Made by a program: the position numbers and the translations under genes. A DNA stretch of 64,000 nucleotides from Haliotis rufescens (taxonomy: Eukaryota). Under the pieces are notes generated by a model. It ran no database searches. It was not told the DNA's origin and saw nothing but the letters and a program-made list of their open reading frames with translations. This document shows, piece after piece, positions 3,890 to 62,564 of this stretch (position 1 is its first letter; every line of letters begins with the position of its first letter). The stretch spans positions 1,922,001-1,986,000 of the forward strand of contig NW_025963868.1 in the NCBI RefSeq assembly GCF_023055435.1, given 5' to 3'.

Positions 3890-5508
3890 TCAACTGTTGG
3901 GTATTCATAAATATATCTCTATGACATCACACACCTGTTGGGTATTTCTTGAATACCATCTCTCTGTAACATCACACATCTGTTGGTATTCCAATAATAC
4001 CATCACTATAACATCACACATCTGTTGGGTATTCCTAGAATACCATCTCACTGTAACATCACACATCTGTTGGGTATTCCTAGAATACCATCTCACTGTA
4101 ACATCACACATCTGTTGGGTATTCCTAGAATACCATCTCTGTAACATCACACACCTGGTGGGTATTCCTAGAATAACATCTCTGTAACATCACACGCCTG
4201 TTGGGTATTCCTAGAATACCATCTCTGTAACATCACACGCCTGTTGGGTATTCCTAGAATAACATCTCTGTAACATCACACACCTGGTGGGTATTCCTAG
4301 AATACCATCTCACTGTAACATCACACATCTGTTGGGTATTCCTAGAATACCATCTCACTGTATCATCACACATCTGTTGGGTATTCCTAGAATACCATCT
4401 CTGTAACATCACACACCTGGTGGGTATTCCTAGAATAACATCTCTGTAACATCACACGCCTGTTGGGTATTCCTAGAATACCATCTCTGTAACATCACAC
4501 GCCTGTTGGGAATTCCTAGAATAACATCTCTGTAACATCACACACCTGGTGGGTATTCCTAGAATACCATCTCACTGTAACATCACTCACCTGGTGGGTA
4601 TTCCTAGAATACCATCTCTGTAACATCACACACCTGGTGGGTATTCCTAGAATACCATCTCACTGTAACATCACACCTCTGTTGGGTATTCCTAGGATAT
4701 CATCTCTCTGTAACATCACACACCTGGTGGGTATTCCTAGAATACCATTTCACTGTAACATCACACATCTGCTTGGTATTCCTAGGATACCATCCCACTG
4801 TAACATCACACATCTGTTGGGTATTCCTAGAATACCATCTCTATAACATCACACATCTGGTTGGTATTCCTAGAATACCATCTCACTGTAACATCACACT
4901 TTTGTTGGGTATTCCTAGAATACCATCTCTGTAACATCACACATCTGTTGGTATTCCATGAATACCATCTCTGTAACATCACATATCTGTTGGGTATTCC
5001 TAGAATACCATCTCTGTAACATCGCACACCTGGTGGGTATTCCTAGAATACCATCTCTGTAACATCACACACCTGTTGGGTATTCCTAGAATACTATCTC
5101 TCTGCAACATCACACATCTGTTGGTATTCCAAGAATACTATCTCTTTAACGCCAAACACCTGTTGGGTACTCCTAGAATACCATCTCTCTGTAACATCAC
5201 ACTTTTGTTGGGTATTCCTAGAAAACCATCTCTGTAACATCACACATCTGTTGGTATTCCAAGAATACTATCTCTTTAACGCCACACAACTGTTGGGTAT
5301 TCCTAGAATACCATCTCTCTGTAACATCACACATCCGTTGGTATTCCAAGAATACCATCTCTTTAACGCCACACAACTGTTGGGTATTCCTTGAATACCA
5401 TCTCTCTGTAACATCACACATCTGTTGGTATTCCAAGAATACTATCTCTTTAACGCCACATACCTGTTGGGTATTCCTAGAATACCATCTCACTGTAACA
5501 TCACACAC
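3890..5508. repeat. Minisatellite, about 41-43 bp unit with internal palindrome GGTATTC-CTA-GAATACC
   Basis: Roughly 35-40 head-to-tail units of CTGTAACATCACACATCTGTTGGGTATTCCTAGAATACCATCT, no unique spacers. Confidence 0.95.
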
Positions 5509-5513
5509 TTACA

Positions 5514-5759
5514 TTGGGAACTAAAGAGTTTCCACTAAAGGTTGGACAACCAGTGTGGTTATATAATCCTGGGAAGAACCTCCCGTCCAGCAGGAAGTTC
5601 ATTACTCGCTGGAAGAAGGGATGGGTGGTCATCAAACAGATTGATGATGTGACTTACCGTATACAGGATGGTTCAAATAACTCACCTCGGGTTGTCAATG
5701 TTGACAGACTTCTGCCCTATGAGGGAGATGATCCTCCAACATGGTGGACTTCTCAGTAA
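5514..5759 (+). pseudogene. Gypsy integrase C-terminal (GPY/F, SH3-like) fragment
   Basis: LKVGQPVWLY...RKFITRWKKGWVVIKQIDDVTYRI...VVNVDRLLPY matches the typical Ty3/Gypsy pol C-terminus. The upstream pol is replaced by the minisatellite. Confidence 0.8.
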
Positions 5760-6183
5760 TTCTCACATACTGTTAGTGTACTGTTATTCCAAATGAATCT
5801 GAAAACAATTATATTTCACTTGTTTTCCTACATATTGTCAGAGCCCTTTATACTTTAGTTTCATGAAGATATGAATATTACGGTTGCATTGTGGATGCAA
5901 CAGATCAAAATGTGATCTAGAGAATGTCTTGCACAAAAGTTGAATGTTAAACAACATATCTTTTAAGTGGTAAAGATTTAAAATTTAGGCTTGATGTAAG
6001 CTTTCTAAACTATTTACTGGATATGGTTGGTTGGTATGGGATTCACTCTAGTTCTCACTGAGGAAGCTGATGATGGATCATGATTCCTAGGATGTATCTA
6101 GAATATAGAAAAGTGATAAGCACTGTTGAAGTTACAACATATCTCATGCAGGCGTTACTTACTCCTTATTTGCAGTCAGAAGG

Positions 6184-7005
6184 ATGGCTGACATTCTCAC
6201 CCTGGATGTTGATGAAGAGGAGATCAAGCAATGGGGATCGGTGCATCCAGAGGTGATGGAGGGGGCGCCAGGAATGAAATTTATTAAATTCATACCAAAT
6301 ATGGACTGCCCTGCCTGCCTTGACACTAAGACATTTGCATCGCGACGTGACTTTGAAGAACATTGGGCGCGAACGCATCACAGGGTGCATAAATCATTTG
6401 CTTGCCCTGTAAAGAAGTGTCAGGATTGTCGCTCTTCACTAAAAAGTTTAAAATACCATATTGCGCACAAGCATTTAAATTCAAATGTTATTACCTCTCA
6501 GGTTGATAAGCTTTGCGCAGATGTGACTGTTGAAGTGGAACGAAATGAAAATTTCGTTGACCCTGGGGTTTACTGTTTGTCCTGGCAGACATGGCGTCCC
6601 CGGGGCAAGAGGGCGGGTAAGAAGGGGAAATCAGCGAAAGCATCTTCCTCTTGCTCTGCCCTGTCTGTCCAAACGTCACAGACTGTCACAGAACCTAAGA
6701 AAGAAATTGATTCAGTTCCTCTCAAATGTTCACTCCCAAATATGCCATCTGTGTCCGATCTGCAGATGGAAATTGCAGCTCTCAGAGAGCGCAATACTGT
6801 GATGCAGCAGGCTCTTGCCGCTCGCCATGGGGCACACTGGCCTACCTGTCTGGATATTCCCACAAACAGGCCCCAGCTTGATGAATTTATCGCCAAGGGC
6901 TGGGAGGCAATGGCCGTGCTACAGTCTGCCGAGGGTAGGCGATTTCAGCAGCAGCTTGACCAGCTATGTATATTGTACGTATTAGATCAAATAAATGTTT
7001 CATAG
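6184..7005 (+). CDS. Retrotransposon accessory ORF with two C2H2-like fingers and a coiled coil; C-terminus truncated or chimeric
   Basis: 273 aa with CPAC..F..H..TH and CPVKKC..LKYHIAHKH. Preceded by acceptor CCTTATTTGCAG (to 6175). The last about 14 codons come from the LTR segment. Confidence 0.6.
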   Translation: MADILTLDVDEEEIKQWGSVHPEVMEGAPGMKFIKFIPNMDCPACLDTKTFASRRDFEEHWARTHHRVHKSFACPVKKCQDCRSSLKSLKYHIAHKHLNSNVITSQVDKLCADVTVEVERNENFVDPGVYCLSWQTWRPRGKRAGKKGKSAKASSSCSALSVQTSQTVTEPKKEIDSVPLKCSLPNMPSVSDLQMEIAALRERNTVMQQALAARHGAHWPTCLDIPTNRPQLDEFIAKGWEAMAVLQSAEGRRFQQQLDQLCILYVLDQINVS

Positions 7006-12414: not shown

Positions 12415-14175
12415 AAAGTAGTCTATATCACCAACATCCACATCACATATTCCCCGTATCAACTGTCTGGGAATACCTGTATTACAAAGTACCATAGAAC
12501 ATTCTCAGGAGTAGTCTACATCCACGGCACATATTCCCTGTATAAACTGTCTGGGAATACCTGTATTACAAAGTACCATAGAACATTCTCAGGAGTAGTC
12601 TACATCCACGGCACATATTCCCTGTATAAACTGTCTGGGAATACCTGTATTACAAAGTACCATAGAACATTCTCAGGAGTAGTCTACATCCACGGCACAT
12701 ATTCCCTGTATAAACTGTCTGGGAATACCTGTATTACAAAGTACCATAGAACATTCTCAGGAGTAGTCTACATCCACGGCACATATTCCCTGTATAAACT
12801 GTCTGGGAATACCTGTATTACAAAGTACCATAGAACATTCTCAGGAGTAGTCTACATCCACGGCACATATTCCCTGTATAAACTGTCTGGGAATACCTGT
12901 ATTACAAAGTACCATAGAACATTCTCAGGAGTAATCTACGTCACCCCCATCCATGGCATATATTCCCTGTATCAACTGTCTTGGAATACCTGTATTACAA
13001 AGTACCATAAAACATTCTCAGGAGTAGTCTACATCCACGGCACATATTCCCTGTATCAACTGTCTGTGGATAACTGTATTACAAAGTACCTTGGAACATT
13101 CTCAGGAGTAGTCTACATCACCTACATGCACGGCACATATTCCCCGTATCAACTGTCTGGGAATACCTGTATTACAAAGTACCATAGAACATTCTCAGGA
13201 GTAGTCTACATCCTCGGCACATATTCCCTGTATAAACTGTCTGGGAATACCTGTATTACAAAATACCATAGAACATTCTCAGGAGTAGTCTACATCACCT
13301 ACATGCACGGCACATATTCCCCGTATCAACTGTCTGGGAATACCTGTATTACAAAGTACCATAGAACATTCTCAGGAGTAATCTACATCACCCACATCCT
13401 TGGCACATATTCCCCGTATCAACTGTCTGGGAATACCTGTATTACAAAGTACCATAGAACATTCTCAGGAGTAATCTACATCACCCACATCCATGGCACA
13501 TATTCCCCGTATCAACTGTCTGGGAATACCTGTATTACAAAGTACCATAGAACATTCTCAGGAGTAATCTACATCACCCACATCCATGGCACATATTCCC
13601 CGTATCAACTGTCTGGGAATACCTGTATTACAAAGTACCATAGAACATTCTCAGGAGTAATCTACATCACCCACATCCATGGCACATATTCCCCGTATCA
13701 ACTGTCTGCGGATAACTGTATTACAAAGTACCATAGAACATTCTCAGGAGTAATCTACATCACCCACATCCATGGCACATATTCGCTGTATCAACTGTCT
13801 GTGGATAACTGTATTACAAAGTACCATAGAACATTCTCAGGAGTAGTCTACATCACCTACATCCAAGGCACATATTCCCTGTATCAACTGTCTGTGGATA
13901 ACTGTATTACAAAGTACCATAGAACATTCTCAGGAGTAATCTACATCACCCACATCCATGGCACATATTCCCTGTATCAACTGTCTGTGGATAACTGTAT
14001 TACAAAGTACCATAGAACATTCTCAGGAGTAGTCTACATCACCTACATGCACGGCACATATTCCCTGTATCAACTGTCTGGGAATACTGTTTCACAAAGT
14101 TACACAGAACATACTGCCAGTAGTAGTCTGTATTACCTACATCCACGGCACATATTCCCCATATCAACTGTCTGT
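12415..14175. repeat. 84/93-bp tandem array immediately 3' of the ZNF stop codon
   Basis: About 19 units. The unit contains TATCAACTGTCTG, the reverse complement of the gene's last codons plus TGA. Confidence 0.95.
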
Positions 14176-17100
14176 CTGAGACTGCAGCATCTGGGCTATG
14201 ATGCTGGATGTGGATGGGGATCTGTTCAGAATGGGTCCCGTCGCCTTCTCCTCCCTCCTCCTCTTGCCAGTCACCTTCACCTTCTTACCTGGAGAAGTGG
14301 TTGGTCCCGCGAAGGGTCGCTTCAAGTTCTCTCTGATACTTGTTGGTGCCACCTCTGGTGGTGACACTGGGGTCGCCTGGGTCCTGATCACCTTTGCATA
14401 AACTGCTGCTGTGTGGATGTGTTGCTGGCGTGAGGGTCGAACATCCCTACCAGACATTAGAGGTTCACTTGACTTTAGGATAACGCTACAGAGATTGCTC
14501 TTGACTGGACTCCTGGCGATATTAGATTTTGAATCTGAGGTCTTCTTCACATCAGTCCCAGACACAAGGCTTGATTCATCAGATACTGCTGTACTTGGAG
14601 CAGATGGTGATACAGCTTCAGGATTCTGTTTGGCTTCTTCAACTTTTCTTTCATCTGGTACCGACTTTGTCTGCAATAATTTGGTTTTCAGAGCAGATGA
14701 AAGCATAAACGGAAGGAGCTTCCCCTCGAGGTCACTTTCATCACAAGAGTCGATAGACGTGACCTCCTGTTTGACCTCTAAGACCTCGGGAATGTCCTCC
14801 GACTCCTGTTCCCCGGTAGACTTCCACTCAGGGTGTGTGCGGATGTGGCGGTAATGGCTGCCGTAGTTGTTGAACTGCCTCTCACAGAACATACACTTGT
14901 AGGGCTTCTCCCCCGTGTGGATTCGCATGTGAACGCGGTAGTGACACGACGCTGTGAACGTCTTTCCGCAGATGTTACAGGAGAAGGGCCGGTCCCCTGT
15001 GTGGGTCCGCATGTGCACCGTGAGTGAGTTGGAGTACAGAAAGCTCTTATCACAGATGTCACACTTGAACTTGCGCTCACCGACATGGGTGAGCTTGTGT
15101 CGTCCAAGTATCGAAGATGAAGAATACGATTTCAAACATATAGAACATTTAAAAGGTCGTTCGCCTGTGTGGGATCTCAGGTGATCCTTCAGTGTGGTAG
15201 AAAGGGCGAACGCCTTCCCGCATTGATCACATCCAAACGGTTTCTCCCCTGTGTGTGTCCTTGTGTGTCGCTCCAACTCCGACGGCGAGTAGAACGTCTT
15301 CTCACACTGCTTGCACTTGTTCAGCGCCATTCGTTTATGAACATAACGAACATGGACGGCCTTCCTATTCTTGGAACGAAAAACCAGGCCACACTTCTCA
15401 CAGGGGTAACTCTCTGCGACTGGCATCAACGCAGGGTCCACTTTGTCCACCAGCTCCACCAAACCCTTATCCGACTCCCGCATATGACAGTGCATGTGTT
15501 TCCGCAGGCTTGAGGCCTGCTTGAACTGGGAACCACAGATAGCACACATGGTGACGTTCCCGTGTGTCAGCAGTCCCTTGTGTGTCTGGAGATGTCCTGA
15601 CAAATGCCAGGAACGCTGAAAGGTCTTCTTGCAAACAGGACAACCGTACGGTCTGTCGAGAGAGCAGGCATCGTGAGTGTTCATATGTTCAAAAGCCTGT
15701 TTCAAGGTGGGAGAGACCTTCCCACACCTGAAGCAGTTTAACTCATCGATCTTCTTGGAGTGGGTTTTCACATGAACGATGAGCGCTCCGGGGGTACCGA
15801 ATGCTTTGTCACATATCCCACACCGATACAGGGAAGGTGTCCCTTGTAGAGGAGTGACCTCTTTCTGTTGAGGTGATGTTTGAACTTTCATCACTTGTTT
15901 TTGTGTCACCGGATGAAGCTTAAACACAAGATTTTGTGTCCCTGTTTGCTGTTGTGCCACTGATTGTAGTTTCACCACTGGTTGCTGTTGTGCAACTGCT
16001 TTCAATTTCACAAACGGTTGCTGTTGTGCCACTTGTTGCAGTTTCACAACTGGTTGCTGTTGTGCCACTTGTTGCAGTTTCACAACTGGTTGCTGTTGTG
16101 CAACTGCTTTCAATTTCACAAACGTTTGCTGTTGTGCCACTTGTTGCAGTTTCACCACTGGTTGCTGTTGTGCCACTTGTTGCAGTTTCACAACTGGTTG
16201 CTGTTGTGCAACTGCTTTCAATTTCACAACTGGTTGCTGTTGTGCAACTGCTTTCAATTTCACAACTGGTTGCTGTTGTGCCACTTGTTGCAGTTTCACC
16301 ACCGGCTGCTGTTGTGCCACTTGTTGCAGTTTCACCACCGGTTGCTCTTGTGCAACATGTTGCAGTTTTATCAGAGGCTGGGTCTGTATTTGTATCAGTG
16401 GCTGCTTGTGTTTTGCTATCAAGGGTTGTGTGTTGGTCACTGATAGCCGTGTTGTCATAGGCTGGAGTTTTGGTTGTATCTTAATCCATGGTCGCTTTGG
16501 GGCGAATAGTTGTTCCTTTTTGGCTTGCTGTTTTGTTGGTTGCTGTTTTACCTCAGGTTGTTGTTCAATTGGTGGCTCTTCTTTTACTGGCTGGTGCTTA
16601 CCTGCAAGTCGCTGTTGTTTTGCTAACTGCCGTTTTGCTAACAGTTGTTGTTTTACTGTTCGCAGTTTTGACACAGCCGGTGGTTTTACTGGTTGCAGTT
16701 TTGCCAATTCTTTCTGCTGTTTTATTATTTGCAGTTTTTCCACAAGTTGCTGTTTGACTGATTTCTGCTTTGTCACAGTTTGCTGTTGTCCTGGTGGTTG
16801 TATTTCACCACGAGGTCTCTTTTCTTTAACAGAATCAGGACTTATCACAAGCTGCTCCTTGGTCTCAGGATGTCCTTCCTCCAGTTGCTGTTTGTCATGT
16901 TCATCAAATATATCCCGAGATGATTTGTGGATGTACACCATATTGCCAACGTCTGCCTGAGACAAGTCCTCATCACTGACAGGTTCTTCCTTCACCTGTA
17001 CATTGTCCAACTCCTCATCTTCACTGTCCCCACCACCCTTTGCCAGCATCGCGGTAGCTTCTCCACCCACATCAGCACAACTCCCAGTCTGGTCGTTTTC

Positions 17101-18550
17101 TGCCTCTGTTTCCTCCCCAGGCTCAACTTTCACGTCCGTCATGACGGCATCGTCCTCGGTGTCCACACCGCCTAACGCGGGATGACTGCACTGCAGGCTC
17201 TCCATACCTTCCTCTGGTTCTTTCTTAATGGTAACCATGGGAACCATCATTGTCCATTCGGTTGAGTCACTTCCCACGAAGCCAAAACCAGGCGCGATGA
17301 TCTCAGATGGGTTCACACCACAATTACTACCTGGATCTGACGTCGTGGTTTCATGTCCGTGGTCACCGACATCCTCCTGGTCCCCTTCACCATCATCGTC
17401 ACCATCATCGTCACCATCATCGTCACCATCATCGTCACCTCCATCATCATCATAATCACCATCGTCACCGACATCATCATCGCCATCAATGTCATCATCA
17501 TCGTCATCGTCATCATCATCATTCCTTGTAATGATGAAGGAATCACTGTCTACGACTCTGTTTCCTGCCCCAGGTTCTGTCTTGATGACGGTGTTACCGT
17601 CACTGCCTATCACATAGATCTCTGATGTTTTCCCACATGTGTCAACTTTTGTCGTGATATTGACTTCAGATGCTGAACCAGGATTCCGATTACTTTCGAC
17701 TGGAGCAGACACTGCTTTGTGTCCACCTGAATCGGTCCTCACCTCACCCTCCGTATTGGGAATATCCTGCAAAACAAAAGGATACAAATTTGAAATGTCC
17801 ATTCTGGAAAAAAACAAAAGCGTTTCATGCTGAAAAAATTGTCCATCACATTAAATCAGAAATCATAAGACCTGGATTATTACACCCCTTGAAACCGGTG
17901 TAATCAAGGATTATATCCTACCTAAATATTATCCCAAGGAGAGTTTTACTCTACAGTATAGTATAGGATAGGATTAAACACACTGGCAGGGGTTCAAATT
18001 CACAAGGGAGAATCATCCTGACACTAGAGAATCGCAACCATATATTCGAAATAAAAATTTCAAAATTTTAATTGAGAACTGTATCAACATATTTTTCAAG
18101 CGTAGTCTGAAATGAAAGTCACCAGATTGAAACGAGTGCCGTAAAGCTCAAGAAAGCGTAATGGGATGTCCTCAGATCTTTGTTTAGCGGCAGCGAGAAC
18201 TGATCTGATTTTGATGAGATTGATATAGCAAGGCAGGGCTTCATGCAGGCGGGGGCGGTCGGGTAGCCTGGTGGTTAAAGCCCATTTCTGGTGTCCCCCG
18301 CCGTGATATTGCTGGAATATTGCTAAAAGCGGCGTAAAACCATACTCACTCACTCACTCACTCATGCGGGCCATGGCAGGTCTCTTCTGTTTCAAATGTT
18401 CATCCAACTGAAGCACAGCATGTTGACAGAATCCAGCTGAGATTCAAGTCTAGACTAAACCCAGACTTAAAGCAAACACTCCTTCCACTGACCCACCATC
18501 CCCATTCTTACCATTCCAACAGCTTGACTGTCGCTCTTAGACGCCAACAT
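14164..18550 (-). CDS. C2H2 zinc-finger transcription factor (11 fingers), about 1,214 aa; exons 18550-18512 and 17767-14164
   Basis: Eleven C2H2 fingers, the last ones with TGEKPF/TGERPF/TGDRPF linkers. Acidic D/G tract and Q-rich 12-aa repeats. Acceptor TTTGCAG|GAT at 17767 is in phase 0 with the upstream exon ATG TTG...GGA ATG|GTAAGA. Confidence 0.9.
15940..16370 (-). repeat. 36-bp coding tandem repeat (VVKLQQVAQQQP)
   Basis: About 12 in-frame units within the ZNF exon. Confidence 0.9.
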
Positions 18551-18568
18551 AGCGCGGTCCTTGCTTAC
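18512..18568 (-). other. 57-nt start-codon exon beginning with a 5' splice-site motif (TTTCAG|GTAAGC)
   Basis: Branch-like CTAAT, then TTTCAG (AG at 18570-18569), exon start GTAAGC, ATG at 18550, donor GTAAGA at 18511. Confidence 0.7.
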
Positions 18569-18621
18569 CTGAAACATACAATCCAAATCCATTAGAGGAA
18601 AAACTGTCAGTCCTCAGGCAA

Positions 18622-20552
18622 TATGACCTGAATAACTGAGTGGATATGACCTGAATAACTGAGTGGATATGACCTGAATAACTGAAAGGCTTTGTCCTGA
18701 ATAACTGAGAGATATGACCTGAATAACTGAGAGGCTTTGACCCGAATAACTGAGAGACTATGACCTGAATAACTGAGATATGACCTGAATAACTGAGAGG
18801 CTTTGACCCGAATAACTGAGAGGTTATGACCTGAATAACTGAGAGACTATGACCTGAATAACTGAGATATGACCTGAATAACTGAGAGGCTTTGACCCGA
18901 ATAACTGAGAGGCTATGACCTGAATAACTGAGAGGATATGACCTGAATAACTGATTAGATATGACCTGAATAACTGAGTGATATGACCTGAATAACTGAG
19001 AGGCTATGACCTGAATAACTGAGGCTATGACCTGAATAAATGAGTGATATGACCTGAATAACTGAGAGACTTTGACCTGAATAACTGAGAGGCTATGACC
19101 TGAATAACTGAGGATATGACCTGAATAACTGAGAGGCTATGACCTGAATAACAGAGCTATGACCTGAATAACTGAGAGGATATGACCTGAATAACTGAGA
19201 AGATATGACCTGAATAACCGAGAGATACGACCTGAATGACCGAGAGATATGACCTGAATAACCGAGAGATATTACCTGAATAACCGAGAGATATGACCTG
19301 AATAACTGAGAGTCTATGGCCTGAATAACTGAGAGATATGACCTGAATAACTGAGAAGATATGACCTGAATAACTGAGATGATATGACCTGAATAACTGA
19401 GAGGATATGACCTGAATAACTGAGAAGATATGACCTGAATAACCGAGAGATATGACCTGAATAACCGAGAGGATATGACCTGAATAACCGAGAGGATATG
19501 ACCTGAATAATCGAGAGATATGACCTGAATAACCGAGAGGATATGACCTGAATAACTGAGAGGATATGACCTGAATAACCGAGATATGACCTCAATAACC
19601 GAGAGATATGACCGGAATAACTGAGAGGATATGACCTGAATAACTGAGAAGATGTGACTTAAATAACCGAGAGATATGACCTGAATAACTGAGAGGATAT
19701 GACCTGAATAACCAAGAGATATGACGTGAATAACCGAGATATATGACCTGAACAACTGAGGAGATATGACCTGAATAACTGAGAGGATATGACCTGAATA
19801 ACTGAGAGGATATGACCTGAATAACTGAGAAGATATGACCTAAATAACCGAGAGATATGACCTGAATAACCGAGAGATATGACCTGAATAACTGAGAGAC
19901 TTTGACCTGAATAACTGAGAGGATATGACCTGAATAACTGAGAGGCTATGACCGGAATAACTGAGAGACTTTGACCTGAATAACTGAGAGGATATGACCT
20001 GAATAACTTAGAGGATATGACCTGAATAACGGAGAGATATGACCTGAATAACTGAGAGGATATGACCTGAATAACTGAGAGGATATGACCTGAATAACTG
20101 AGAGATATGACCTGAATAACTGAGAGGATATGACCTGAATAACCGAGAGGATATGACCTGAATAACTGAGAAGATATGACCTGAATAACCGAGAGGATAT
20201 GACCTTAATAACTGAGATGATATGACCCTTAATAACCGAGAGATATTACCTGAATAACTGAGATATATGACCTGAATAACCGAGATATATGACCTGAATG
20301 ACCGAGAGATATGACCTGAATAAGTGAGAGGATATGACCTGAATAACTGAGAGGATATTACCTGAATAACTGAGATATATGACCTGAATGACCGAGAGAT
20401 ATGACCTGAATAAGTGAGAGGATATGACCTGAATAACTGAGAGGATATTACCTGAATAACTGAGATATATGACCTGAATAACCGAGATATATGACCTGAA
20501 TAACCGAGAGATATTACCTGAATAAGTGAGAGGATATGACCTGAACAACTGC
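18622..20552. repeat. Minisatellite, 21-24 bp unit (ATATGACCTGAATAACTGAGAGG)
   Basis: About 80-85 units. Confidence 0.95.
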
Positions 20553-22409: not shown

Positions 22410-22534
22410 CCATGCACCAGCCTTGTCCACTCTAGTGCTGAAGGCGATTCCTCGGTCCAAAAGCTTTCCCTGAATACAAAGTTGACTATCGTCATTAACA
22501 GGAAGATGTATCGCTGTCACGTAGTTTATTCAAA
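22410..22534 (-). other. Possible internal non-coding exon of the ZNF locus
   Basis: CTGAC branch-like motif, then GTCTTCAGTATTTCAG acceptor; donor TGG|GTAGGT; non-repetitive sequence. Confidence 0.4.
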
Positions 22535-23089: not shown

Positions 23090-24625
23090 CAGGCCCGAGA
23101 CGATTCTACCTGCCATTCGGGTCATTCATGGACCCATACAAATTTGAAACTACGGGCCCGAGACGATTCTACCTGCCATTCGGGTCATTCATTGACCCCT
23201 ACAAATTTGAAACTACGGGCCCGAGACGAAATCTACCTGCCATTCGGGTCATTCATGGACCCATACAAATTTGAAACTACGGGCCCGAGACGAAATCTAC
23301 CTGCCATTCGGGTCATTCATGGACCCATACAAATTTGAAACTACGGGCCCGAGACGAAATCTACCTGCCATTCGGGTCATTCATGGACCCATACAAATTT
23401 GAAACTACGGGCCCGAGACGAAATCTATCTGCCATTCGGGTCATTCATGGACCCATACAAATTTGAAACTACGGGCCCGAGACGAAATCTACCTGCCATT
23501 CGGGTCATTCATGGACCCATACAAATTTGAAACTACGGGCCCGAGACGAAATCTACCTGCCATTCGGGTCATTCATGGACCCATACAAATTTGAAACTAC
23601 AGGCCCGAGACGATTCTACCTGCCATTCGGGTCATTCAAGGACCCATACAAATTTGAAACTACGGGCCCGAGACGATTCTACCTGCCATTCGGGTCATTC
23701 ATGGACCCATACAAATTTGAAACTACGGGCCCGAGACGAAATCTACCTGCCATTCGGGTCATTCATGGACCCATACAAATTTGAAACTACGGGCCCGAGA
23801 CGATTCTACCTGCCATTCGGGTCATTCAAGGACCCATACAAATTTGAAACTACAGGCCCGAGACGATTCTACCTGCCATTCGGGTCATTCATGGACCCAT
23901 ACAAATTTGAAACTACGGGCCCGAGACGAAATCAAACTGCCATTCGGGTCATTCATGGACCCATACAAATTTGAAACTACGGGCCTGAGACGAAATCTAC
24001 CTGCCATTCGGGTCATTCAAGGACCCCTACAAATTTGAAACTACAGGCCCGAGACGATTCTACCTGCCATTCGGGTCATTCATGGACCCATACAAATTTG
24101 AAACTACGGGCCCGAGACGAAATCTACCTGCCATTCGGGTCATTCATGGACCCATACAAATTTGAAACTACAGGCCCGAGACGATTCTACCTGCCATTTG
24201 GGTCATTCAAGGACCCCTACAAATTTGAAACTACAGGCCCGAGACGATTCTACCTGCCATTCGGGTCATTCATGGACCCATACAAATTTGAAACTACGGG
24301 CCCGAGACGAAATCTACCTGCCATTCGGGTCATTCATGGACCCATACAAATTTGAAACTACAGGCCCGAGACGATTCTATCTGCCATTCGGGTCATTCAA
24401 GGACCCATACAAATTTGAAACTACAGGCCCGAGGCGATTCTACGTGCCAATTCGGGTCATTTGAGGACCCATACAAATTTTAAACTACGGGACCAAGGCG
24501 AAATCTACGTGCCAATTCGGGTCATTTGAGGACCCATACAAATTTGAAACTATGGGCCCAAGGGTAAATCTACGTGCCAATTCGGGTCATTTGAGGACCC
24601 CTACAAATTTTAAACTACAGGCCCT
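23090..24625. repeat. Satellite-like array, 63/64-bp unit
   Basis: About 24 highly similar units of AAATTTGAAACTACGGGCCCGAGACGAAATCTACCTGCCATTCGGGTCATTCATGGACCCATAC, diverging at the right end. Confidence 0.95.
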
Positions 24626-25192
24626 AGATATCTGGTCTTGAAGCATAAGGGGATAGTGGTAGTTAAAAATCACCAAAAATTTAGATTTTTTCAAACGCAT
24701 AAAGTCAATATTTTGGTGGTTTTGATTTATTTGATTCGTACTATTCAAGGCAAATTTCCAAGAGCTTTCCATATATATCTGGACCCAACTCTTCACAGCC
24801 AAATGAGGTGCCTTAGACCTCTGGGCCACCCACGCAGGTAGACAAGGGTGATAATGCCATCAATCTGCCAACCGTTTCTAAAATACATTCCTGTACAATT
24901 ATTTTCATTGAAACACATCTGCCGAAGACTCAAAAACGGCAAAACTATTAAATTTTCAGATTGGACTCCATCAAAGGTTCAGTCAAAATTAAAATAATCC
25001 AGATTTTACAAGCTAACCTAAATTAACACAGTGAAAACATAATGCCGTAATAAGCACCCCCGACAAATTGAAAAACTCCCAGTTACAAAATCCTTTTCAA
25101 ATTGATGCCAAAACCACCAAAACCACCTTATTCATGAAACTAAGTCTAGCGGTTGACAGAGAACTCCCAGTTACAAAATCCTTTTCAAACAC

Positions 25193-25571: not shown

Positions 25572-28500
25572 TCATCTTACCCTCAACATTTCCGCGCGGA
25601 CTTGGTCTTGGCGATGTGTACATTTGAACGTCCCCTGATACAGCAGCTTGTGCACCTGCAGTCCCGCCACGCTGTCGAAGTTGATCCCACAGTCCCCACA
25701 CCTGGCCTTGGCTGACGTTTTCTCAACCTTCATCTTCGCATCATTGGACTGAGAACTTATCTGCATCGGCATTTTTTTCCTATGTTCTGTTTTCTGATGT
25801 AGTCCCAAATCAAACTTGGTGGCAAAAGCCATCGGACAAATGGAACAATGGTGCCACTTTTCCACCTTCTGCCTGCCATGTTTCCCTTTCGAAACAACTT
25901 GCTTCAAGTGCTGATGGTACGCAGATTCTGATGCAAATATCTCGTAACATTCACATGTGAAATAACCCTTGGCTTCCACACCCTGAACAAGCGTTTCCTC
26001 AGAGCGGGACTGAGTTGACATGAAGTTCTTGCTTATAAAATTATCAACAATCATTTTATCCTCCTCCTTTGTTGTGGGAGAGATCTGAGGCATGTGTCCG
26101 AGAAGGTTGACCAACACAGGGCTTTTGTCCGAAACAGCCATCTTGTGTTTGGCCTGGGCGTGGCACATGTAGGACGCGAAGTCCAGGAAGAGGACCGAGC
26201 ACTGACAGATGTAGGACTTGTGTTGGCTGAGGTGTTGAAGCATATCCTCCTTCTGCAGGAAGACACTGCGGCACAGGGAACACACGTGGACCTCCACCAT
26301 GCCTGCTGTGGTGGAGGAGGATGTCGTGCTGGTTCCAGCACTCCAACACTTCTGCTGTGTCTTGTCATCCGTGGTCAGGAGAGATTGACTTAAACTTACA
26401 CCACTTATAACACTGGCTGAGCCTTCCTGCTTCACTTCTTCAGGCATCAACTCACCACCTCTACTACTGTCACACAGGATACCATTTTCCCCACTGCTGT
26501 TTGAAACACCAGGTCCATTTTCCCCACTGCTATTTGTAACACCAGGTCCATTTTCCCCACTGCTGTTTGTAACAGTTAGTTCATTTTTCCCACTGCTGTT
26601 AGAAACACCAGGTCCATTTTCCCCACTGCTGTTTGAAACACCAGGTCTATTTTCCCCACTACTGTTTGAAACACCAGGTCTATTTTCCCCGCTGCTGTTA
26701 GAAACACCAGGTCCATTTTCCCCACTGCTATTTGTAACACCAGGTCCATTTTCCCCACTGCTGTTTGTAACAGTTAGTTCATTTTTCCCACTGCTGTTAG
26801 AAACACCAGGTCCATTTTCCCCACTGCTGTTTGAAACACCAGGTCTATTTTCCCCACTACTGTTTGAAACACCAGGTCTATTTTCCCTGCTGCTGTTAGA
26901 AACACCAGGTCCATTTTCCCCACTGCTGTTTGAAACACCAGGTCCATTTTCCTCACTGCTGTTTGAAACCCTTCTTTTTTTCCCACTGCTGTTTGAAACA
27001 CTTCTTTTTTCCCCACTGCTGTTTGAAACACTGAGACCTTTTTCTTTAGTGCAATTTGAAACAGTTGGTCCATTTTCTCCAGTGCTGTTTGTCTTATAAA
27101 TCATGATTTTTTTAGGGTCACTTTCACCATTTCCAACCACAGAAACAAAAATGTCTATATTTGCATTAACGACAGGAGGCGAAGTGACATTAATGTCCTG
27201 TTCGCCAACCATAACACCCTTATCAAACTGTCTGATATTCCTCCAATCCTGACACCTGCTTGATGACATGTGATTTTGACAAGCCCTGGCATCATCACCG
27301 GTCTGAGTGCCACAGTCACACATCAAGCACCTCAACTTGTGTGAACTCCCAACTACATCCGGTCCGCGATATGTCCTCAGATGTCTGTCCAGGTCCTCCT
27401 GCCCAACCAACAACTTCCCACAGGAGCAGAGATTCAGGCAGACATCAGATCCACCTGTGCCATCCACCATTTCAGAATCACTGCTGCAGGTACCCTCCTT
27501 GATTTCACCTGACTCTATGTTCTCCATGTTAATATTTCTCTGTCCGATGTCATCCTCTTCAGATAAGTATTGGTTAAACAGACTTTCCTTGGAAAGATTC
27601 TTGCGATACACTGATTTTAATATTGTGTGGACCATCGTAACCTTACAGTGACTGACAAAATCATTTTCATTTCTAAATATTCTTCCACACTGTATGCAGG
27701 AACAGTAGCCTTCTAGTCCCTGCACAGCTATCTTGATCATGGCTTCCTCCTTGTCACAGCGTGTGACCTTCATCATGGAAGGATCGATGCTACTTGTTGC
27801 CCCGGACATATTCACTCCACTCATGGACATCACAATATCCTGCCCACCGACACGATCTACAGGCGCGACTCCAACATCGCTACTGTCTGGAGTGGAATGT
27901 CTATCACCAACCAGCTCCTTGTCAATCATTGCTCTACAAATAGCATCTTGCATGTCAAGGTCACATCTGCCTTCCTTTGTGCCACAGGTTATGAGTTGTT
28001 CATAACTACCATACTTAGCCTCCAATTTTCCCGATTGTTTTCGAACAATTCTGAAGGAAGAATCAAGTTCCACAACATATTGTACATTGTCGGCCATATT
28101 TTCATCAAAAGTCTTACATAGAGCCCATTCCTTCATCACGGTCAATTGATCAAAATTGAGAGCTAAAGAAACATCGATGTCCTGTTCGTCGGCCATAACA
28201 CACTTGTCAATCTGTCTGATATTCCTCCAGTCCCGAAGCCTGTCTGAAGGTATGTGACCTTGACATGACCTGGCATCATCTCCAGACTGTGTTCCACAGT
28301 CACACATCAAGTGCCTTGAACTGTGTGAACTCGCTACGACATCCGGTCCCTTGTATGTCTGCAGATGTCTGTCCAGGTCCTCCTGCCCAACCAATAGCTT
28401 CCCACATGAGCAGAGATTCAGGGAGACATCAGCGCCACCTATACTCTTCAGTACATCAGTGTTACTGCTACAGATGCTCTCACGCCTGTCCTCACCTGAC

Positions 28501-31500
28501 TGTTTTTTCCCCATGTTAACATTGCCTTGTCCAACTTTGTCCACTTCTGATAAATAACGGTGAAACAGATTTTCTTTGGACAGATTTTTGCGGTGCACTG
28601 TTTTTAATATCTTATGGGTCATTGTAACCTTACAGTGGCTGATAAAATCGTTTTCATTTCCAAATATTCTTCCACATAGTGTGCAGGAGCAGTGGCCTTC
28701 AAGTCCCTGCACAGATATCTTAATCATGGCTCCTTCCTTGTCACATCGTGTGACCTTCATGCTGGAAGGATCGATGCTACTTGCTGCCCCGGACACGCTC
28801 ATTCCACTCGTGGACATCACAACATCCTGCCCACCACCACGCTCTACAGGCGCGACTCCAACAATGCTACTGTCTGGAGTGGAATGTCTATCACCAACCA
28901 GCTCCTTGTCGATCATTGCTCTAAAGTAAGCGTCCTCCATGTCAAGGTCACATACGTTTCCTTTTATTCCATGGTTGAATAATTGTTCATTTTGACCATG
29001 TTTACCCTCCGATTTTCTAGATTGTTTTTGAGCAACTCTGAAGGAAGAATCTTGCTCTACCACATATTGTACATTGTTGGCCATATTTACATCAAATTGT
29101 GTGCATAGTGCCTGGTCCTTCTCCCTAGTCTTTGGATCCAAATTGAGAGCTACAGTGACCTTTATGTCCCGTTGGTCAACCATGACACCCTTGTCAAACT
29201 GTCTGATATTCCTCCAGGGCAGATGCCTGTCTGAAGGGATGTGACCTGGAAATGACCTGGCATCATCTCCGGTCTGAGTGCCACAGTCACACATCAAGTG
29301 CCTTGAACTGTAAGAACTCGCTACTACTACCGGTCCGTTGTATGTCTGCAGATGTCTGTTCAGTTCCACCTGCCCAACCAATAGCTTTCCACAGGAGCAG
29401 AGATTCAAGGAGACATCACGGTTATGGTGAAACTGATTCTGCTTGCTAACATTCTTGCGATACACTGTTTTTATTTTATGGGTCATTGTAGCCTTACAGT
29501 GACTGACAAAATCCTTTTCATTTCCAAATATTCTTCCACACTGTGTGCAAAAGCAGTAACCTTCAAGTCCCTTGACAGATATCTTAATCATGGCTCCCTC
29601 CTTGTCACATCGCGTGACCTTCATGCCGGAAGGATCGATGCTACTTGTTGCCCCGGACACATTCACTCCACTCGTTGAGATCACAATATCCTGCATACCA
29701 CCACGCTCTTTAGGCTCGACTCCAACAATGCTACTGTCAGGAGTGGAATGTCTATTCCCAACCTGTTCCTTGCCAACCTTGACTTCAGGGTCATGTCCTT
29801 TGGTGCCATGGTTCATAATTTGTTTATAAATACCATGATTACTCTCTGATCTTCCAGATTGTTTCCTAACAACTCTGAAGGAAGAATCACGCCCCACTAC
29901 GTATTGTATATTGCTTGCCTCCGTAGCAGAGCAGAACTCAGACCTATTGGGTATGCTGAGGACGAGATTCATGGCATTATCTTTTCCAGCAGCATTGGTT
30001 TCTGACTTTAAACACATTTGCGTCATGCCATGCATTGTACAGTTCATCTCTACAGGAGAAGATGAGGTGGACTCCTTGTTGTCATTCATTCCATCATCAT
30101 CATCCCCCACAGACTTGCAATCTCTCTTACTTTCTTCCTGAATCTTTTCTCCAAAACTGTCACCAGCCTCAGGCAACTGCACCAGCACCAGATAGCTGGC
30201 CCTGTCTCCATCTTCAGATTGGCTCTCAATTGAACCAACCCTCCCTTGTTCATAGTTAGAGCGGCTCTCACTAGAACAGACCCCCTCAAGTTCATGTTGT
30301 GAGTGGCATGGACCTATACTTGCCCCCTTATCTTGATGTTCAGGGTGGCTCTCTTTTGAACGGACTTCACCATCTGAGCTGATCCGCCCAGGTACTGAAC
30401 GTCTGTTTCTACATGTTTGAGTCATTTCTGTTGTTTGCTTATTCAGGATAAATACCTTATTTGCAGGTGTTCTCAAATCAATATCAGGGTGGTTGGTCTG
30501 TGTGGTGGTATGCATTAGCTTGCTTTTCTGCCCCAAAGCCTCACCAAGTATCATACCTTCTACCTTGATGTCCGTGTGCTCCATCGGGGTCCGTTCTTCC
30601 AGAACATCAGGGTGTTTCTTCTTAACATGCCTCTTGTAATCCAGAAAGTCAAGGAATATAGAAGAGCATACACACTTGTAAACTGTGACAGCATATTTGT
30701 CAAAATGCAGTTTGTTGGTTATGTTGAAATTAAATTGCTTCAGATGCCACGTTTCCATGTGTTGTATGAACCGTCCATTGCTGTCAAACGTGATGCTACA
30801 GATCTTACAGCGGAACAAGGATGTACAGCAATCATTGGGCGATTCAACAGCTTGGTGGAAACTAGCATGAGCAGCGAGACTGTCCTCCCCCAACACATGG
30901 GAGCCACACACGCTACACAGGTGGAAGTCCAGGTCCACCTGTTTCACCAACACAACCTGGTTATGTTCCTTAATGTGATTCCTGAACACAGAAAACGTGG
31001 AGAAGGATTCGGAGCAGTTCGAACAAGGGAACCTCTTATCATCCACTAAACCGGAATCATTCTCAACATAGGTCTCATCCCGTTCGTGAGCTTTCACATG
31101 CATCTCCATGTCCTCACTTCCAACATTCCTCCCACACGTTGGACAGAAACTTGTGCTTGGCTTCGAAATGTTGTGGACTTTCAGCAGGTGCTCCTTGTAC
31201 CACCAGTGTCCACGAAAACCCATGTTGCACACATCGCACATGTGCCAAGCACACATTTTATTGAAGAGCCTGTGGTCTGCATTCTCAGCCGGGTCCTTCT
31301 TGTTGTAGCAGCAGCCCTCTCCAGCCACGTTGTCCGGCACAGGCTTCGGGACATATTTCGGCAACTCATGGTGCTCCCTCTCAAGCGCATTGCGTGGAAT
31401 GACTTTTGGAATTGTAACAGGTACCTCGTCATCATCACATTTTCTTTTATGTGTGGGTTTACGAGAAATATCATCGCTTTTCGTTGGAGGAGGATTCTTG

Positions 31501-33206
31501 TGAAGGTCCATATGCTTCTCCAGAGCATCACGAGCAACATCAGTTCCGCATAAGTGGCAAAGTTGCGTAATTTGAACTTGTGTGGTCTCTTTATCGTGCA
31601 TTCTAGTGTGCTCCTCAAAACCTATATTTTCAATGTTATCTCCACATATGTGGCACAGTATGGCTCCAGGCATCACTTCCTTACATTCCGAGGAAGCATC
31701 CTGGCAGGGGTCCTGTGAACTTGAACCATCCTCCTCTCCCTGTGCCAAATGTTCCTTGATGCAATCCGAAGTCACTCCAGTCGACTTTTCTCTTGCTGAT
31801 ATTGTTGCAGTTCCTGTGTGCATCTGGTTCCTGAGTTTTGACAACTCAACAGAAGTAGACGACATTGCTGAATTTTTACTAGAGTATTTGTGACGTATTC
31901 CAGGGACATGCGGATGACCGGGAGAAACACTTCTGTCCTCATGTAGTTTCATGTGTTCCTTGATCCTGTTATCCTCAACACGAGCACCGCAGGTCGGACA
32001 TTGGTACGAGGGCGGGGCAACTATCTTGTGGAAGTTCACAAAGTGGCTCCGATGCATGACTGGATCGCGGAAGCCCATGTGACACATGGTACACATGTGC
32101 CAGCCCCGTCTCAGACTCGAAACCTTCATATCCAGTCCATCAATGAGTCGGAAGCAAATGCCGCACCGATAAACCAGGTTCCCATGCACGCATTTGTCCA
32201 GGGGGTTCATCCGGGGAGTAGCTGACTCTTTCATCACATCTGCCATCATTGTCACCTCCTGTTTATCAGAGGATTCAACTCTACTGCCTGTCTTGGTCAC
32301 TTCATTTTTAGGGGATTTGTCCAAACTTTCCGTTTTGGTCTTGGTATCTTCATCATCAAAGGTTTCATCCATAATTCCTGTGTTGGTCTCTTCTTTATCA
32401 GAAGATTCATCCATAGTTCTTGTCATTGTCTTGGCCTCTTCTTTGTAAGGGTATTCATCCATACTATCCGTTTTGGTCTTGGTATCTTCATTATCACACG
32501 ATTTATCAATAATTCCTGTGTTGGTCTCTTTCATATCAGGAGTTTCATCCATACTTTCTGTCTTTATCGTGGTCTCTTTGTCAGACGATTTATCCATAAT
32601 TCCTGTGTTGGTCTCTTCTTTATCAGGAGATTCATCCATACTCTCTGTCTTTATTGTGGTCTCTTTGTCAGACGATTTATCCATAATTCCTGTGTTGGTC
32701 TCTTTAATATCAGGAGATTCATCCATACTTTCTGTCTTTACCGTGGTCTCTTTATCAGGGGTTTTATCAATACTTTCTGTCTTTACCGTGGTCTCTTTGT
32801 CAGGGGTTTTATCAGTACTTTCTGTCTTTACCGTGGTCTCTTTATCAGGGGTTTTATCAATACTTTCTGTCTTGGTCTTTTCTTTGTCAGGGCATACAAC
32901 CCTACTTCCCGTCTCGGAGGCAGAATCTTGTTTCGCATGTAAAGTACGATCATCTTCTTGTCCATCATCTGAACCTCCCCTGATGCCAGAAGTTGAAGCA
33001 GTCAACCTTTTCTTTGCTGACTTTGGGTTGACACTTTTAGCCATAAATTTGTCAACCTTTTTCGGTTCAGATGAATTACTGGACATTTTTTTCTTGATTC
33101 TGACACTTTCGCGACGAGCAGGAAGTACCACATTCCGTTCACGCCTGGACGGACTGACATGTCCTTCTCTGCGCGTCGTTCTACCGGAACCCTGCCTGCC
33201 CCTCAT
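25572..33206 (-). CDS. Giant single-exon protein (about 2,544 aa) with dispersed, degenerate C2H2 fingers and internal repeats
   Basis: Uninterrupted 7.6-kb ORF with many CxxC...HxxxH motifs lacking TGEKP linkers. First ATG at 33206, just after acceptor CTAATCTCTCCGCTGCAG (33223). Confidence 0.85.
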   Translation of the reverse strand: MRGRQGSGRTTRREGHVSPSRRERNVVLPARRESVRIKKKMSSNSSEPKKVDKFMAKSVNPKSAKKRLTASTSGIRGGSDDGQEDDRTLHAKQDSASETGSRVVCPDKEKTKTESIDKTPDKETTVKTESTDKTPDKETTVKTESIDKTPDKETTVKTESMDESPDIKETNTGIMDKSSDKETTIKTESMDESPDKEETNTGIMDKSSDKETTIKTESMDETPDMKETNTGIIDKSCDNEDTKTKTDSMDEYPYKEEAKTMTRTMDESSDKEETNTGIMDETFDDEDTKTKTESLDKSPKNEVTKTGSRVESSDKQEVTMMADVMKESATPRMNPLDKCVHGNLVYRCGICFRLIDGLDMKVSSLRRGWHMCTMCHMGFRDPVMHRSHFVNFHKIVAPPSYQCPTCGARVEDNRIKEHMKLHEDRSVSPGHPHVPGIRHKYSSKNSAMSSTSVELSKLRNQMHTGTATISAREKSTGVTSDCIKEHLAQGEEDGSSSQDPCQDASSECKEVMPGAILCHICGDNIENIGFEEHTRMHDKETTQVQITQLCHLCGTDVARDALEKHMDLHKNPPPTKSDDISRKPTHKRKCDDDEVPVTIPKVIPRNALEREHHELPKYVPKPVPDNVAGEGCCYNKKDPAENADHRLFNKMCAWHMCDVCNMGFRGHWWYKEHLLKVHNISKPSTSFCPTCGRNVGSEDMEMHVKAHERDETYVENDSGLVDDKRFPCSNCSESFSTFSVFRNHIKEHNQVVLVKQVDLDFHLCSVCGSHVLGEDSLAAHASFHQAVESPNDCCTSLFRCKICSITFDSNGRFIQHMETWHLKQFNFNITNKLHFDKYAVTVYKCVCSSIFLDFLDYKRHVKKKHPDVLEERTPMEHTDIKVEGMILGEALGQKSKLMHTTTQTNHPDIDLRTPANKVFILNKQTTEMTQTCRNRRSVPGRISSDGEVRSKESHPEHQDKGASIGPCHSQHELEGVCSSESRSNYEQGRVGSIESQSEDGDRASYLVLVQLPEAGDSFGEKIQEESKRDCKSVGDDDDGMNDNKESTSSSPVEMNCTMHGMTQMCLKSETNAAGKDNAMNLVLSIPNRSEFCSATEASNIQYVVGRDSSFRVVRKQSGRSESNHGIYKQIMNHGTKGHDPEVKVGKEQVGNRHSTPDSSIVGVEPKERGGMQDIVISTSGVNVSGATSSIDPSGMKVTRCDKEGAMIKISVKGLEGYCFCTQCGRIFGNEKDFVSHCKATMTHKIKTVYRKNVSKQNQFHHNRDVSLNLCSCGKLLVGQVELNRHLQTYNGPVVVASSYSSRHLMCDCGTQTGDDARSFPGHIPSDRHLPWRNIRQFDKGVMVDQRDIKVTVALNLDPKTREKDQALCTQFDVNMANNVQYVVEQDSSFRVAQKQSRKSEGKHGQNEQLFNHGIKGNVCDLDMEDAYFRAMIDKELVGDRHSTPDSSIVGVAPVERGGGQDVVMSTSGMSVSGAASSIDPSSMKVTRCDKEGAMIKISVQGLEGHCSCTLCGRIFGNENDFISHCKVTMTHKILKTVHRKNLSKENLFHRYLSEVDKVGQGNVNMGKKQSGEDRRESICSSNTDVLKSIGGADVSLNLCSCGKLLVGQEDLDRHLQTYKGPDVVASSHSSRHLMCDCGTQSGDDARSCQGHIPSDRLRDWRNIRQIDKCVMADEQDIDVSLALNFDQLTVMKEWALCKTFDENMADNVQYVVELDSSFRIVRKQSGKLEAKYGSYEQLITCGTKEGRCDLDMQDAICRAMIDKELVGDRHSTPDSSDVGVAPVDRVGGQDIVMSMSGVNMSGATSSIDPSMMKVTRCDKEEAMIKIAVQGLEGYCSCIQCGRIFRNENDFVSHCKVTMVHTILKSVYRKNLSKESLFNQYLSEEDDIGQRNINMENIESGEIKEGTCSSDSEMVDGTGGSDVCLNLCSCGKLLVGQEDLDRHLRTYRGPDVVGSSHKLRCLMCDCGTQTGDDARACQNHMSSSRCQDWRNIRQFDKGVMVGEQDINVTSPPVVNANIDIFVSVVGNGESDPKKIMIYKTNSTGENGPTVSNCTKEKGLSVSNSSGEKRSVSNSSGKKRRVSNSSEENGPGVSNSSGENGPGVSNSSRENRPGVSNSSGENRPGVSNSSGENGPGVSNSSGKNELTVTNSSGENGPGVTNSSGENGPGVSNSSGENRPGVSNSSGENRPGVSNSSGENGPGVSNSSGKNELTVTNSSGENGPGVTNSSGENGPGVSNSSGENGILCDSSRGGELMPEEVKQEGSASVISGVSLSQSLLTTDDKTQQKCWSAGTSTTSSSTTAGMVEVHVCSLCRSVFLQKEDMLQHLSQHKSYICQCSVLFLDFASYMCHAQAKHKMAVSDKSPVLVNLLGHMPQISPTTKEEDKMIVDNFISKNFMSTQSRSEETLVQGVEAKGYFTCECYEIFASESAYHQHLKQVVSKGKHGRQKVEKWHHCSICPMAFATKFDLGLHQKTEHRKKMPMQISSQSNDAKMKVEKTSAKARCGDCGINFDSVAGLQVHKLLYQGTFKCTHRQDQVRAEMLRVR
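26482..27030 (-). repeat. 33-bp coding tandem repeat (GVSNSSGENGP)
   Basis: About 16 in-frame units with a higher-order duplication. Confidence 0.9.
27190..29915 (-). repeat. Three-fold internal duplication (about 280-330 aa each) within the giant ORF
   Basis: Three copies of NxQYVV..SSFR..RKQS / RHSTPDSS / KVTRCDKE.AMIKI / CxCxxCGRIF / LCSCGKLLVGQ / MCDCGTQ / WRNIRQFDKGVM. Confidence 0.9.
32280..32890 (-). repeat. Coding tandem repeat (13-15 aa, DKETTVKTESIDKTP-like)
   Basis: Degenerating in-frame units near the N-terminus. Confidence 0.85.
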
Positions 33207-41029: not shown

Positions 41030-42099
41030 TCATTTCGAACACTGATAATCATGGACAACAATATGTAAAGTGCACTGAAAGGTGTGTATTGTTCTTATTT
41101 CAGAATATGTGTATTTGTTAACAAACAAGAGGAAAGTCTGGTCACGTGATAAGCCTACACATGCTGTGTGGTCACTGGAGCAGAAGCTTTTCACACGGAA
41201 TAAGGCGAGCAAAGTAGAGCAGGCTTGGCGGTTATCGGTTATTGTTTGCCAACAATGCTTCAGAACAGTCGATGTCTGGCCTTTTATTGATTGGATGATT
41301 GGCCAAATAAATTTGGGTATTCAGAAAAGGATACAGGTTATATCTATCTCAATGGAAAGGACGGGAGCAAACTTTCAAAACCACAACTGCTTACTATCTA
41401 GCTGTCTGAAGTGACATTCAACAAATGTTGATAATCAACAAAGATCAAAATTATTTTCTTAGTTGGCACACCATAATTGGTTGGTTGGTTTGTTGTTTTA
41501 CGCCGCACTCAGCAATTTTCCAGCTATATGATGGCAATCTGTAAATAATCGAGTCTGGACCAGACAATCCAGTGATTGATATCATGAGCATCAATCCACG
41601 CAATTGGGATCAATGACATGCATCAACCAAGTCAGCGAGCCTGACCACCTGATCTCTTTAGTCGCCTTTTACGTCAAGCATAGTCACATTTTACGGCAAG
41701 CACGGGTTGCTGGAGACCTATTCTACCCCGGAATCTTCAGGGGAGCCATAATTCCAAAGGTCATACCTACATAATCTTTATGACTGCACTGTGGCACACT
41801 TGACAAATAAATACAATTCTTTCAATGCATGTTCAACAAAAATAATATAAAAAGAATTGTCAAACTTAACGTTAATATAAAGCGGATAAATCTTACCTAA
41901 ACATATATTTTCTGAAAAGTCGATGAGAGTAATTTGTCTTTATAGTTTACCCAGAAACTACAATGATGTTTCAAAACAACATAAAAAAAATTCAAAATCA
42001 CTAGTCTAAATAATGTCACTTTTGTCCTTAAAACTCAATGAAACCAACAAAGCCAAACTCAGTAATGTCACACTGACATCTCGTCTGACTGCGACAATC

Positions 42100-43892: not shown

Positions 43893-44053
43893 CAGTAAAC
43901 TACGTATATAACGAACACGCTTATAACGAACTGTTTTGGGGTCTTGTCCATTTGCTGTTTATATGCTGTAGATATGCATATATCGAACTACGGTTATAAC
44001 GAACTAAAATTAGTGGTTCCTTTTAGTTAATTTCTTATTACCGTAGTTTACTG
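43893..44053. mobile_element. Tc1/mariner-type MITE, TA TSD
   Basis: ta|CAGTAAACTACG...CGTAGTTTACTG|ta. Confidence 0.85.
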
Positions 44054-45866: not shown

Positions 45867-46050
45867 ACTCACCAGACTCCAGAGTGACGTCAAACCCAAC
45901 TCGTTCACTCGGTCGCTAAAAATATCAAATAGTTTCTTTTCGTTTTAGTTTAGTATACCGGCGATATTCAGATTCTGATATTCCTACATTTTGATGTTAC
46001 CCACTAGGTGGCTCCCGTGTCGCTGACTTCCGGTCGTGTTCCTCCTCAAG
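45867..46050. promoter_or_regulatory. MRPL41 promoter, probably bidirectional
   Basis: ETS ACTTCCGG at 46026-46033, CRE TGACGTCA at 45885-45892, minus-strand donor TG|GTGAGT at 45867-45872. Confidence 0.55.

Positions 46051-60712: not shown

Positions 60713-61187
<475 letters not shown>

Positions 61188-61802: not shown

Positions 61803-62564
<762 letters not shown>

Follow-up and report, generated by a model that had tools for sequence, protein, structure and literature searches.

The window, i.e., the whole 64,000-nt stretch of Haliotis rufescens DNA that was analyzed, harbors on its minus strand four exons that join into a single stop-free frame of 3781 residues (Table 1). The introns between them, of 3111, 3841 and 745 nt, are all phase 0 and are bounded by canonical splice sites. 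The frame of exon 1 (25572-33206, minus strand), a 7.6-kb coding exon with scattered C2H2-like motifs and threefold internal repeats, has no Pfam match at E 0.001; in exon 4, both PF00096 and PF13465 score above the cut-off. The exon at issue here is exon 3, the first bases of which resemble a 5' splice site.

Table 1. Features of the zinc-finger gene on the minus strand of the window (a slash marks a splice junction)
Feature	Positions	Strand	Description
Coding exon 1	25581..33206	minus	7626 nt from ATG 33206; donor AGG/GTAAGA; matches N-terminal part of XP_071095972.1
Coding exon 2	22410..22469	minus	60 nt, phase 0/0, ends TGG/GTAGGT; 17/20 residues identical to XP_071095972.1
Tandem array, 23-nt unit	18621..20551	minus	~86 copies; intron 2; ends 52 nt before the exon 3 acceptor
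Predicted branch point CTAAT	18591..18595	minus	A at 18592, 24 nt from the end of the AG
AG/GTAAGC, used acceptor plus donor-like exon start	18563..18570	minus	putative recursive-splice (RS) 5' splice site
Coding exon 3	18512..18568	minus	57 nt, 19 codons, phase 0/0, begins GTAAGC
Donor of exon 3, ATG/GTAAGA	18506..18511	minus	745-nt intron downstream
Coding exon 4	14164..17766	minus	1200 codons plus stop; acidic, Gln-rich stretches, then C2H2 zinc-finger array

Each intron or untranslated region around the small exons of the gene has its own array or repeat. A 93-nt tandem array of ~19 copies (12417-14129) lies directly after the exon 4 stop, in the 3' untranslated region, and, read on the plus strand, forms an open frame of 709 codons; intron 1 contains a CpG-rich 64-nt tandem array of 24 copies (23092-24628), and two common repeats are found in the 745-nt intron. 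Farther away, the plus strand at 57000-62300 carries exons that we take to belong to an ABC transporter of the ABCC/MRP type, with visible Walker motifs and an 80-nt tandem array (60713-61047) overlapping exon-like sequence. At 5499-7005, also on the plus strand, lie a retroelement-like remnant and a 291-codon frame with zinc-finger-like motifs; the frame at 5499-5759 is presumably integrase-tail-like.

CpG is depleted over most of 12-39 kb, the exception being the CpG-rich 64-nt array at 23.1-24.6 kb, and is rich at 42-46 kb. In molluscs, CpG richness is tied to promoters. The promoter of the gene thus probably lies at 42-46 kb, and the low CpG content across most of 12-39 kb leaves no clear internal promoter. 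The region 42000-46300 is likely a bidirectional promoter. Position 46026 has an ETS-like motif, GTGAGT donors occur on the minus strand near 45872 and 42703, and on the plus strand a frame begins at ~46050. Candidate noncoding exons are present near 37037-36991 and 33493-33440. An arrangement in which exon 3 is spliced to a noncoding first exon at 42-46 kb, similar to the shared 5' exon of lola, was considered and set aside, as the relative described below makes exon 2 the simpler partner.

Among longer proteins, our search returned one hit from 1166 candidates, XP_071095972.1, a 3679-residue Haliotis cracherodii protein model that is 93% identical over the query region. The model carries exons 1-2-3-4 in this order, with exon 3 internal, behind two coding exons. 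Over the full frame, 3398 of 3670 aligned residues are identical (92.6%), and 17 of the 19 residues of exon 3 are retained. Exon 2 is therefore the likely upstream partner of exon 3, as modeled from this relative. The 1-2 and 2-3 junctions were taken from XP_071095972.1 and not from reads of this locus, and XP_071095972.1 is an automatic model, of a kind that can fuse neighboring genes. In a rough simulation, frame continuity of this kind arises by chance with a probability of ~0.008-0.02 if exon 2 and the start of exon 3 were untranslated, and a G/GTRAG donor falls within 15 nt of the exon 1 stop with a probability of ~0.008; the argument from frame continuity is weakened because gene finders prefer open frames. 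Exon 2, exon 3 and the start of exon 4 each have one match in the genome, indicating that there is no paralog.

The arrangement around exon 3 is as the sequence-only reading had described it. On the minus strand, the CTAAT is followed by a T-rich tract, a CAG (AG at 18570-18569), the 57-nt exon beginning GTAAGC and the donor ATG/GTAAGA. That reading had also placed an acceptor before the next exon, which is present, though its start was given one base off, at 17767; the AG occupies 17768-17767, such that exon 4 begins at 17766 and the exon 3/4 junction is phase 0. The next in-frame methionine was correctly placed ~170 codons on, the first internal methionine of exon 4 being codon 173. In the 64-kb window, the motif YAGGTRAG occurs nine times, compared with 6.97 ± 2.69 in shuffled sequence (27 of 100 shuffles reach nine), and is thus not enriched. 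Within the two large exons of the gene, 23 of 11,229 positions start a GTRAG, so that an exon starting with GTRAG is uncommon per exon yet expected many times per genome.

The proposal that exon 3 supplies the start codon is not supported. Exon 3 contains two in-frame ATGs, one at 18550 and a second as its last codon, and the 18 nt that precede ATG 18550 are stop-free and in frame, a point that had been missed. Indeed, exon 3 is a symmetric phase-0 exon that is open from its first base, and in the four-exon model the frame remains open back through exons 2 and 1 to ATG 33206, so that ATG 18550 is not the first start. Because exon 3 is symmetric and the frame is continuous upstream, skipping it (22410 to 17766) would keep the frame and remove 19 residues, and no start codon. 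A start-codon switch is therefore unlikely. Conservation relative to XP_071095972.1 does not change significantly across the ATG, with 5 of 26 residues differing before ATG 18550 and 9 of 97 after it (p = 0.17).

Use of exon 3 was assessed in assembled contigs. Four of 24 candidate runs, none of which is recorded as RNA, were aligned to 17530-18640, namely X1 and X2 (organism A), X5 (organism B) and X9 (organism C), all of them labeled "RNA?". X1, X2 and X9 were taken to be RNA, given that their cover breaks off at exon boundaries; depth is 0 at 17796-17871 and, in X1 and X2, also at 18442-18479. Exon 3 boundaries and cover were deduced from binned contig depth. For X1 and X2, the bins at the two edges hold 7.0 and 14.0 letters of one contig, which places the cover at 18511-18569, i.e., the exon and one G on each side. 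In X9 the best fit has cover ending at 18569, with a largest residual of 0.03 depth units compared with 0.80 for 18570. In this fit a depth-41 contig comprises the exon 4 start and 18512-18541, a depth-36 contig spans 18512-18569, and a depth-10 contig runs from exon 3 into the downstream intron; the depth-41 contig accounts for both the exon 4 start and the exon 3 end (73.72 predicted, 73.7 observed). Exon 3 is thus covered to within one base in three of the four runs (X1, X2 and X9; two species). X5 is uninformative, as exon 3 and most of the aligned exon 4 stretch are without cover.

These data show that the acceptor before GTAAGC is used in all three informative runs. The cover ends at 18569, and depth is 0 in the bins spanning 18594-18640 in all four runs, with no upstream-extended cover; GTAAGC therefore forms the first bases of exon 3 and is not the donor of an upstream-extending exon, the simpler explanation that the sequence-only reading had offered against itself. 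The other outcome that it had held against itself, constitutive inclusion of exon 3, is what the contigs show, as far as they reach, in all three informative runs. No branch representing skipping (22410 to 17766) was seen at the exon 4 acceptor in these three runs; contigs lose rare forms, and branches of ~20-30% were retained in the same contigs (depth 10 beside 41 in X9, and 3.03 beside 7.78 in X2). The two exon 4 alleles present in X1 and X2 (212-nt records, 196 nt aligned) continue unbroken past the acceptor into an identical run of 16 letters, which points to one upstream partner. The one-letter contig overhang at 18569 is as expected if the upstream exon has a non-A base followed by G at its end, as exon 2 does (TGG); other exons of this kind would fit too. 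In X1 the exon 3 contig has a depth of 8.68, lower than the depth of 22 in exon 4, which we attribute to depth being a whole-contig mean.

Some further observations concern the exon 4 acceptor region. The second exon 4 allele in X1 and X2 (17572-17767) shows 13 differences in 196 nt, while the genome has one copy; among the 12 differences listed, seven codons change the residue and three match the H. cracherodii residue. This allele would reflect high polymorphism or mixed ancestry. Short extra contig cover over the acceptor at ~17754-17789, with the same 1:8 bin split, is present in X1, X2 and X5 but not in X9 and is probably a look-alike from another locus. A strong-looking acceptor, with a long T run followed by CCAG, lies at 17804/17803 on the minus strand, 37 nt upstream of the exon 4 acceptor, and has no spliced cover in X1, X2 or X9.

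Collectively, we favor, with a probability of roughly 0.74, the reading that a single gene of four exons encodes a 3781-residue C2H2 zinc-finger protein and that exon 3, its third coding exon, is included by default despite its donor-like start. Exon definition would operate between the CAG at 18569 and the 18511 donor. Splicing of exon 2 onto exon 3 would rebuild the sequence TGG/GTAAGC, and this donor would then mostly go unused. By analogy with human cells, the rebuilt donor may be ignored because the exon junction complex (EJC) deposited by the first splice masks it; alternatively, the 745-nt downstream intron could be removed first, leaving the rebuilt donor ignored. A mago gene was found in the genome. 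The donor-like start itself may be a tolerated by-product of the codons Val-Ser-Lys; these residues are retained in XP_071095972.1 and the X9 alignment reaches the first base of exon 3, in species that are too close to show selection, while the one homolog that is more distant, a Haliotis rubra model, does not extend to this part. Were the rebuilt donor used, the product would lack the 19 linker residues and keep both the frame and start codon 33206.

Donor strength was estimated as pairing with the U1 5' end of this genome, a proxy for MaxEntScan, with exon 2 taken from the model of the relative. Joined exons 2 and 3 give -9.2 kcal/mol, compared with -8.0 kcal/mol for the donor of exon 3, consistent with the suggestion of the sequence-only reading that the regenerated donor competes with the downstream one. 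The three true donors of the gene pair with -8.0, -8.9 and -11.6 kcal/mol and its other two junctions with -4.5 and -1.5 kcal/mol. By this proxy, the rebuilt TGG/GTAAGC lies in the range of the true donors of the gene, and exon 3 qualifies as a putative RS-exon.

The class that this fits is a described and common one, that of the annotated RS-exons. In the survey of Blazquez et al. 2018 (PMC6224609), a donor is rebuilt by 6,837 human exons (3.6%), of which 93.8% are constitutive, and EJC loss leads to their skipping in human cells. The share of such exons is comparable in animals ranging from sea urchin to human, and roughly half as large in Drosophila, in which no EJC effect was seen; the seven species surveyed include no mollusc and no lophotrochozoan. 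As with the annotated RS-exons of that survey, exon 3 is an internal exon that rebuilds a 5' splice site and is included in the transcripts seen; those exons were scored by MaxEntScan and are EJC-repressed (PMC6224609), and exon 3 is assigned by U1 pairing.

Two other groups of recursively spliced exons are related in sequence. The 51-nt Ubx exons of Drosophila keep the frame, are ultraconserved and are recursively spliced (Hatton 1998, as described in PMC8605326). Similar to exon 3, m1 and m2 of Ubx are short, frame-keeping coding exons that begin with donor sequence; as characterized there, m1 is ultraconserved over 51 nt, alternatively spliced and of proven recursive use. In contrast, exon 3 differs at 2 of 19 residues between close relatives and shows no skipping in the contigs. 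Cryptic RS-exons and ratchet points, known from Drosophila and from vertebrate CADM2, share with exon 3 a YAG/GTAAG with a donor <100 nt downstream; in flies, the cryptic RS-exons are skipped, and they generally do not keep the frame (PMC8605326). Human saw-tooth sites are described in PMC10156609 as lying in introns with a median of ~550 kb, with sites also found in a broader size range. The likeness to such long-intron cryptic or poison exons that the sequence-only reading had drawn fails, as exon 3 is stop-free, phase 0/0 and keeps the frame, is included in all three informative runs and is flanked by introns of 3841 and 745 nt.

Intrasplicing of protein 4.1R controls its start codon. This protein, cited in bioRxiv 10.1101/159350 as an example of first-exon-dependent intrasplicing, is the closest precedent for an upstream exon that decides re-splicing and hence the protein isoform. 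Unlike 4.1R, exon 3 showed no sign of a second upstream exon or another promoter, and its ATG appears internal.

Several other readings of the locus were weighed. One, the model of the sequence-only reading, is that exons 1 and 4 come from two genes, or that a shorter isoform arises from an internal promoter. Translation of a 1213-residue zinc-finger protein would then begin at ATG 18550, with exon 2 and the initial 18 nt of exon 3 left untranslated, and recursive skipping would remove that start. The exon 1 frame, read into intron 1, meets a stop two codons past the donor, so that exon 1 could alternatively end by polyadenylation there, and AATAAA is found in introns 1 and 2 (22804, 22525 and 21902). 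ATG 18550 has a purine at -3 and is itself kept in XP_071095972.1, with 13 of 13 residues from the ATG identical; the distance from the CpG-rich 64-nt array to exon 2 is 620 nt; and a Haliotis rubra model (P0007), the single match of a wide protein search, is set apart from exon 1 as a separate 417-residue protein that starts inside exon 4, without the exon 3 region. This model is probably a fragment. Against this arrangement, the frame is continuous over three phase-0 introns and is matched by a 3679-residue model in a relative, no stand-alone form of 660-2100 residues was found among the best 8000 candidates of the protein search and no N-terminal fragment ortholog at shorter lengths, no skip branch was seen in the three informative runs, and the difference in conservation across the ATG is not significant. 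We consider this reading improbable. A reading that retains the four-exon gene but has the rebuilt donor used in a minority of transcripts or in some tissues, as for Ubx m1/m2, yielding a regulated isoform without the 19 linker residues, is doubtful. The pairing of the rebuilt donor with U1 is no weaker than that of the downstream donor, exon 3 is symmetric and near in size to the 51-nt Ubx microexons (PMC8605326), and the depth-10 contig of X9 indicates that molecules retaining the downstream intron exist; rare forms would be lost from contigs in any case. However, the missing skip branch in data that kept branches of ~20-30%, the short introns and the two residue differences from a close relative, which set exon 3 apart from ultraconserved exons, all speak against it.

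We regard as highly improbable a dual-use site, in which CAG/GTAAGC serves as donor for an exon that extends upstream to an AG located within the tandem array or following it. In unspliced RNA this site forms the most base pairs with U1 among the sites tested (9 of 11 pairs, -11.0 kcal/mol), and AGs are available 35, 44 and 59 nt upstream, but each of the three exons that these would create introduces a frameshift and would cut off the zinc-finger exon, and the contig cover described above is empty where they would lie. The last reading concerns the 23-nt array itself, which contains 76 AG/GT units, including 64 of CAG/GTCATA and five of CAG/GTAATA (20517, 20451, 20361, 20249 and 19275). The array is private to the locus at the exact-match level, with 39 of 39 18-mer matches and 4 of 4 39-mer matches in the 1.33-Gb genome falling inside it; the stretch used for contig alignment took in only its last 20 bases. 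Judged from their sequence, its units are possible decoy acceptors or ratchet points. That intron 2 is removed stepwise, with the array providing ratchet points that end at the AG/GTAAGC exon, and with regulated recursive skipping of that exon which, in a short isoform from an internal promoter, removes the start codon of the zinc-finger protein, seems to us very unlikely. If true, it would be the first described recursive splicing in a mollusc, and one built by tandem-repeat expansion; our literature search, which was thin for subscription journals, found no paper on recursive splicing in molluscs.

The preferred reading, default inclusion of exon 3 in a four-exon gene, matters little in itself, as a few percent of all exons rebuild a donor in the surveyed animals, and most of these are included. 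Exon 3 is a clean candidate with which to ask if re-splicing is repressed in molluscs, as it is in deuterostomes, or if they resemble Drosophila in this respect, and the ~70 acceptor-like decoys just before a correctly used acceptor offer a natural test of exon definition.
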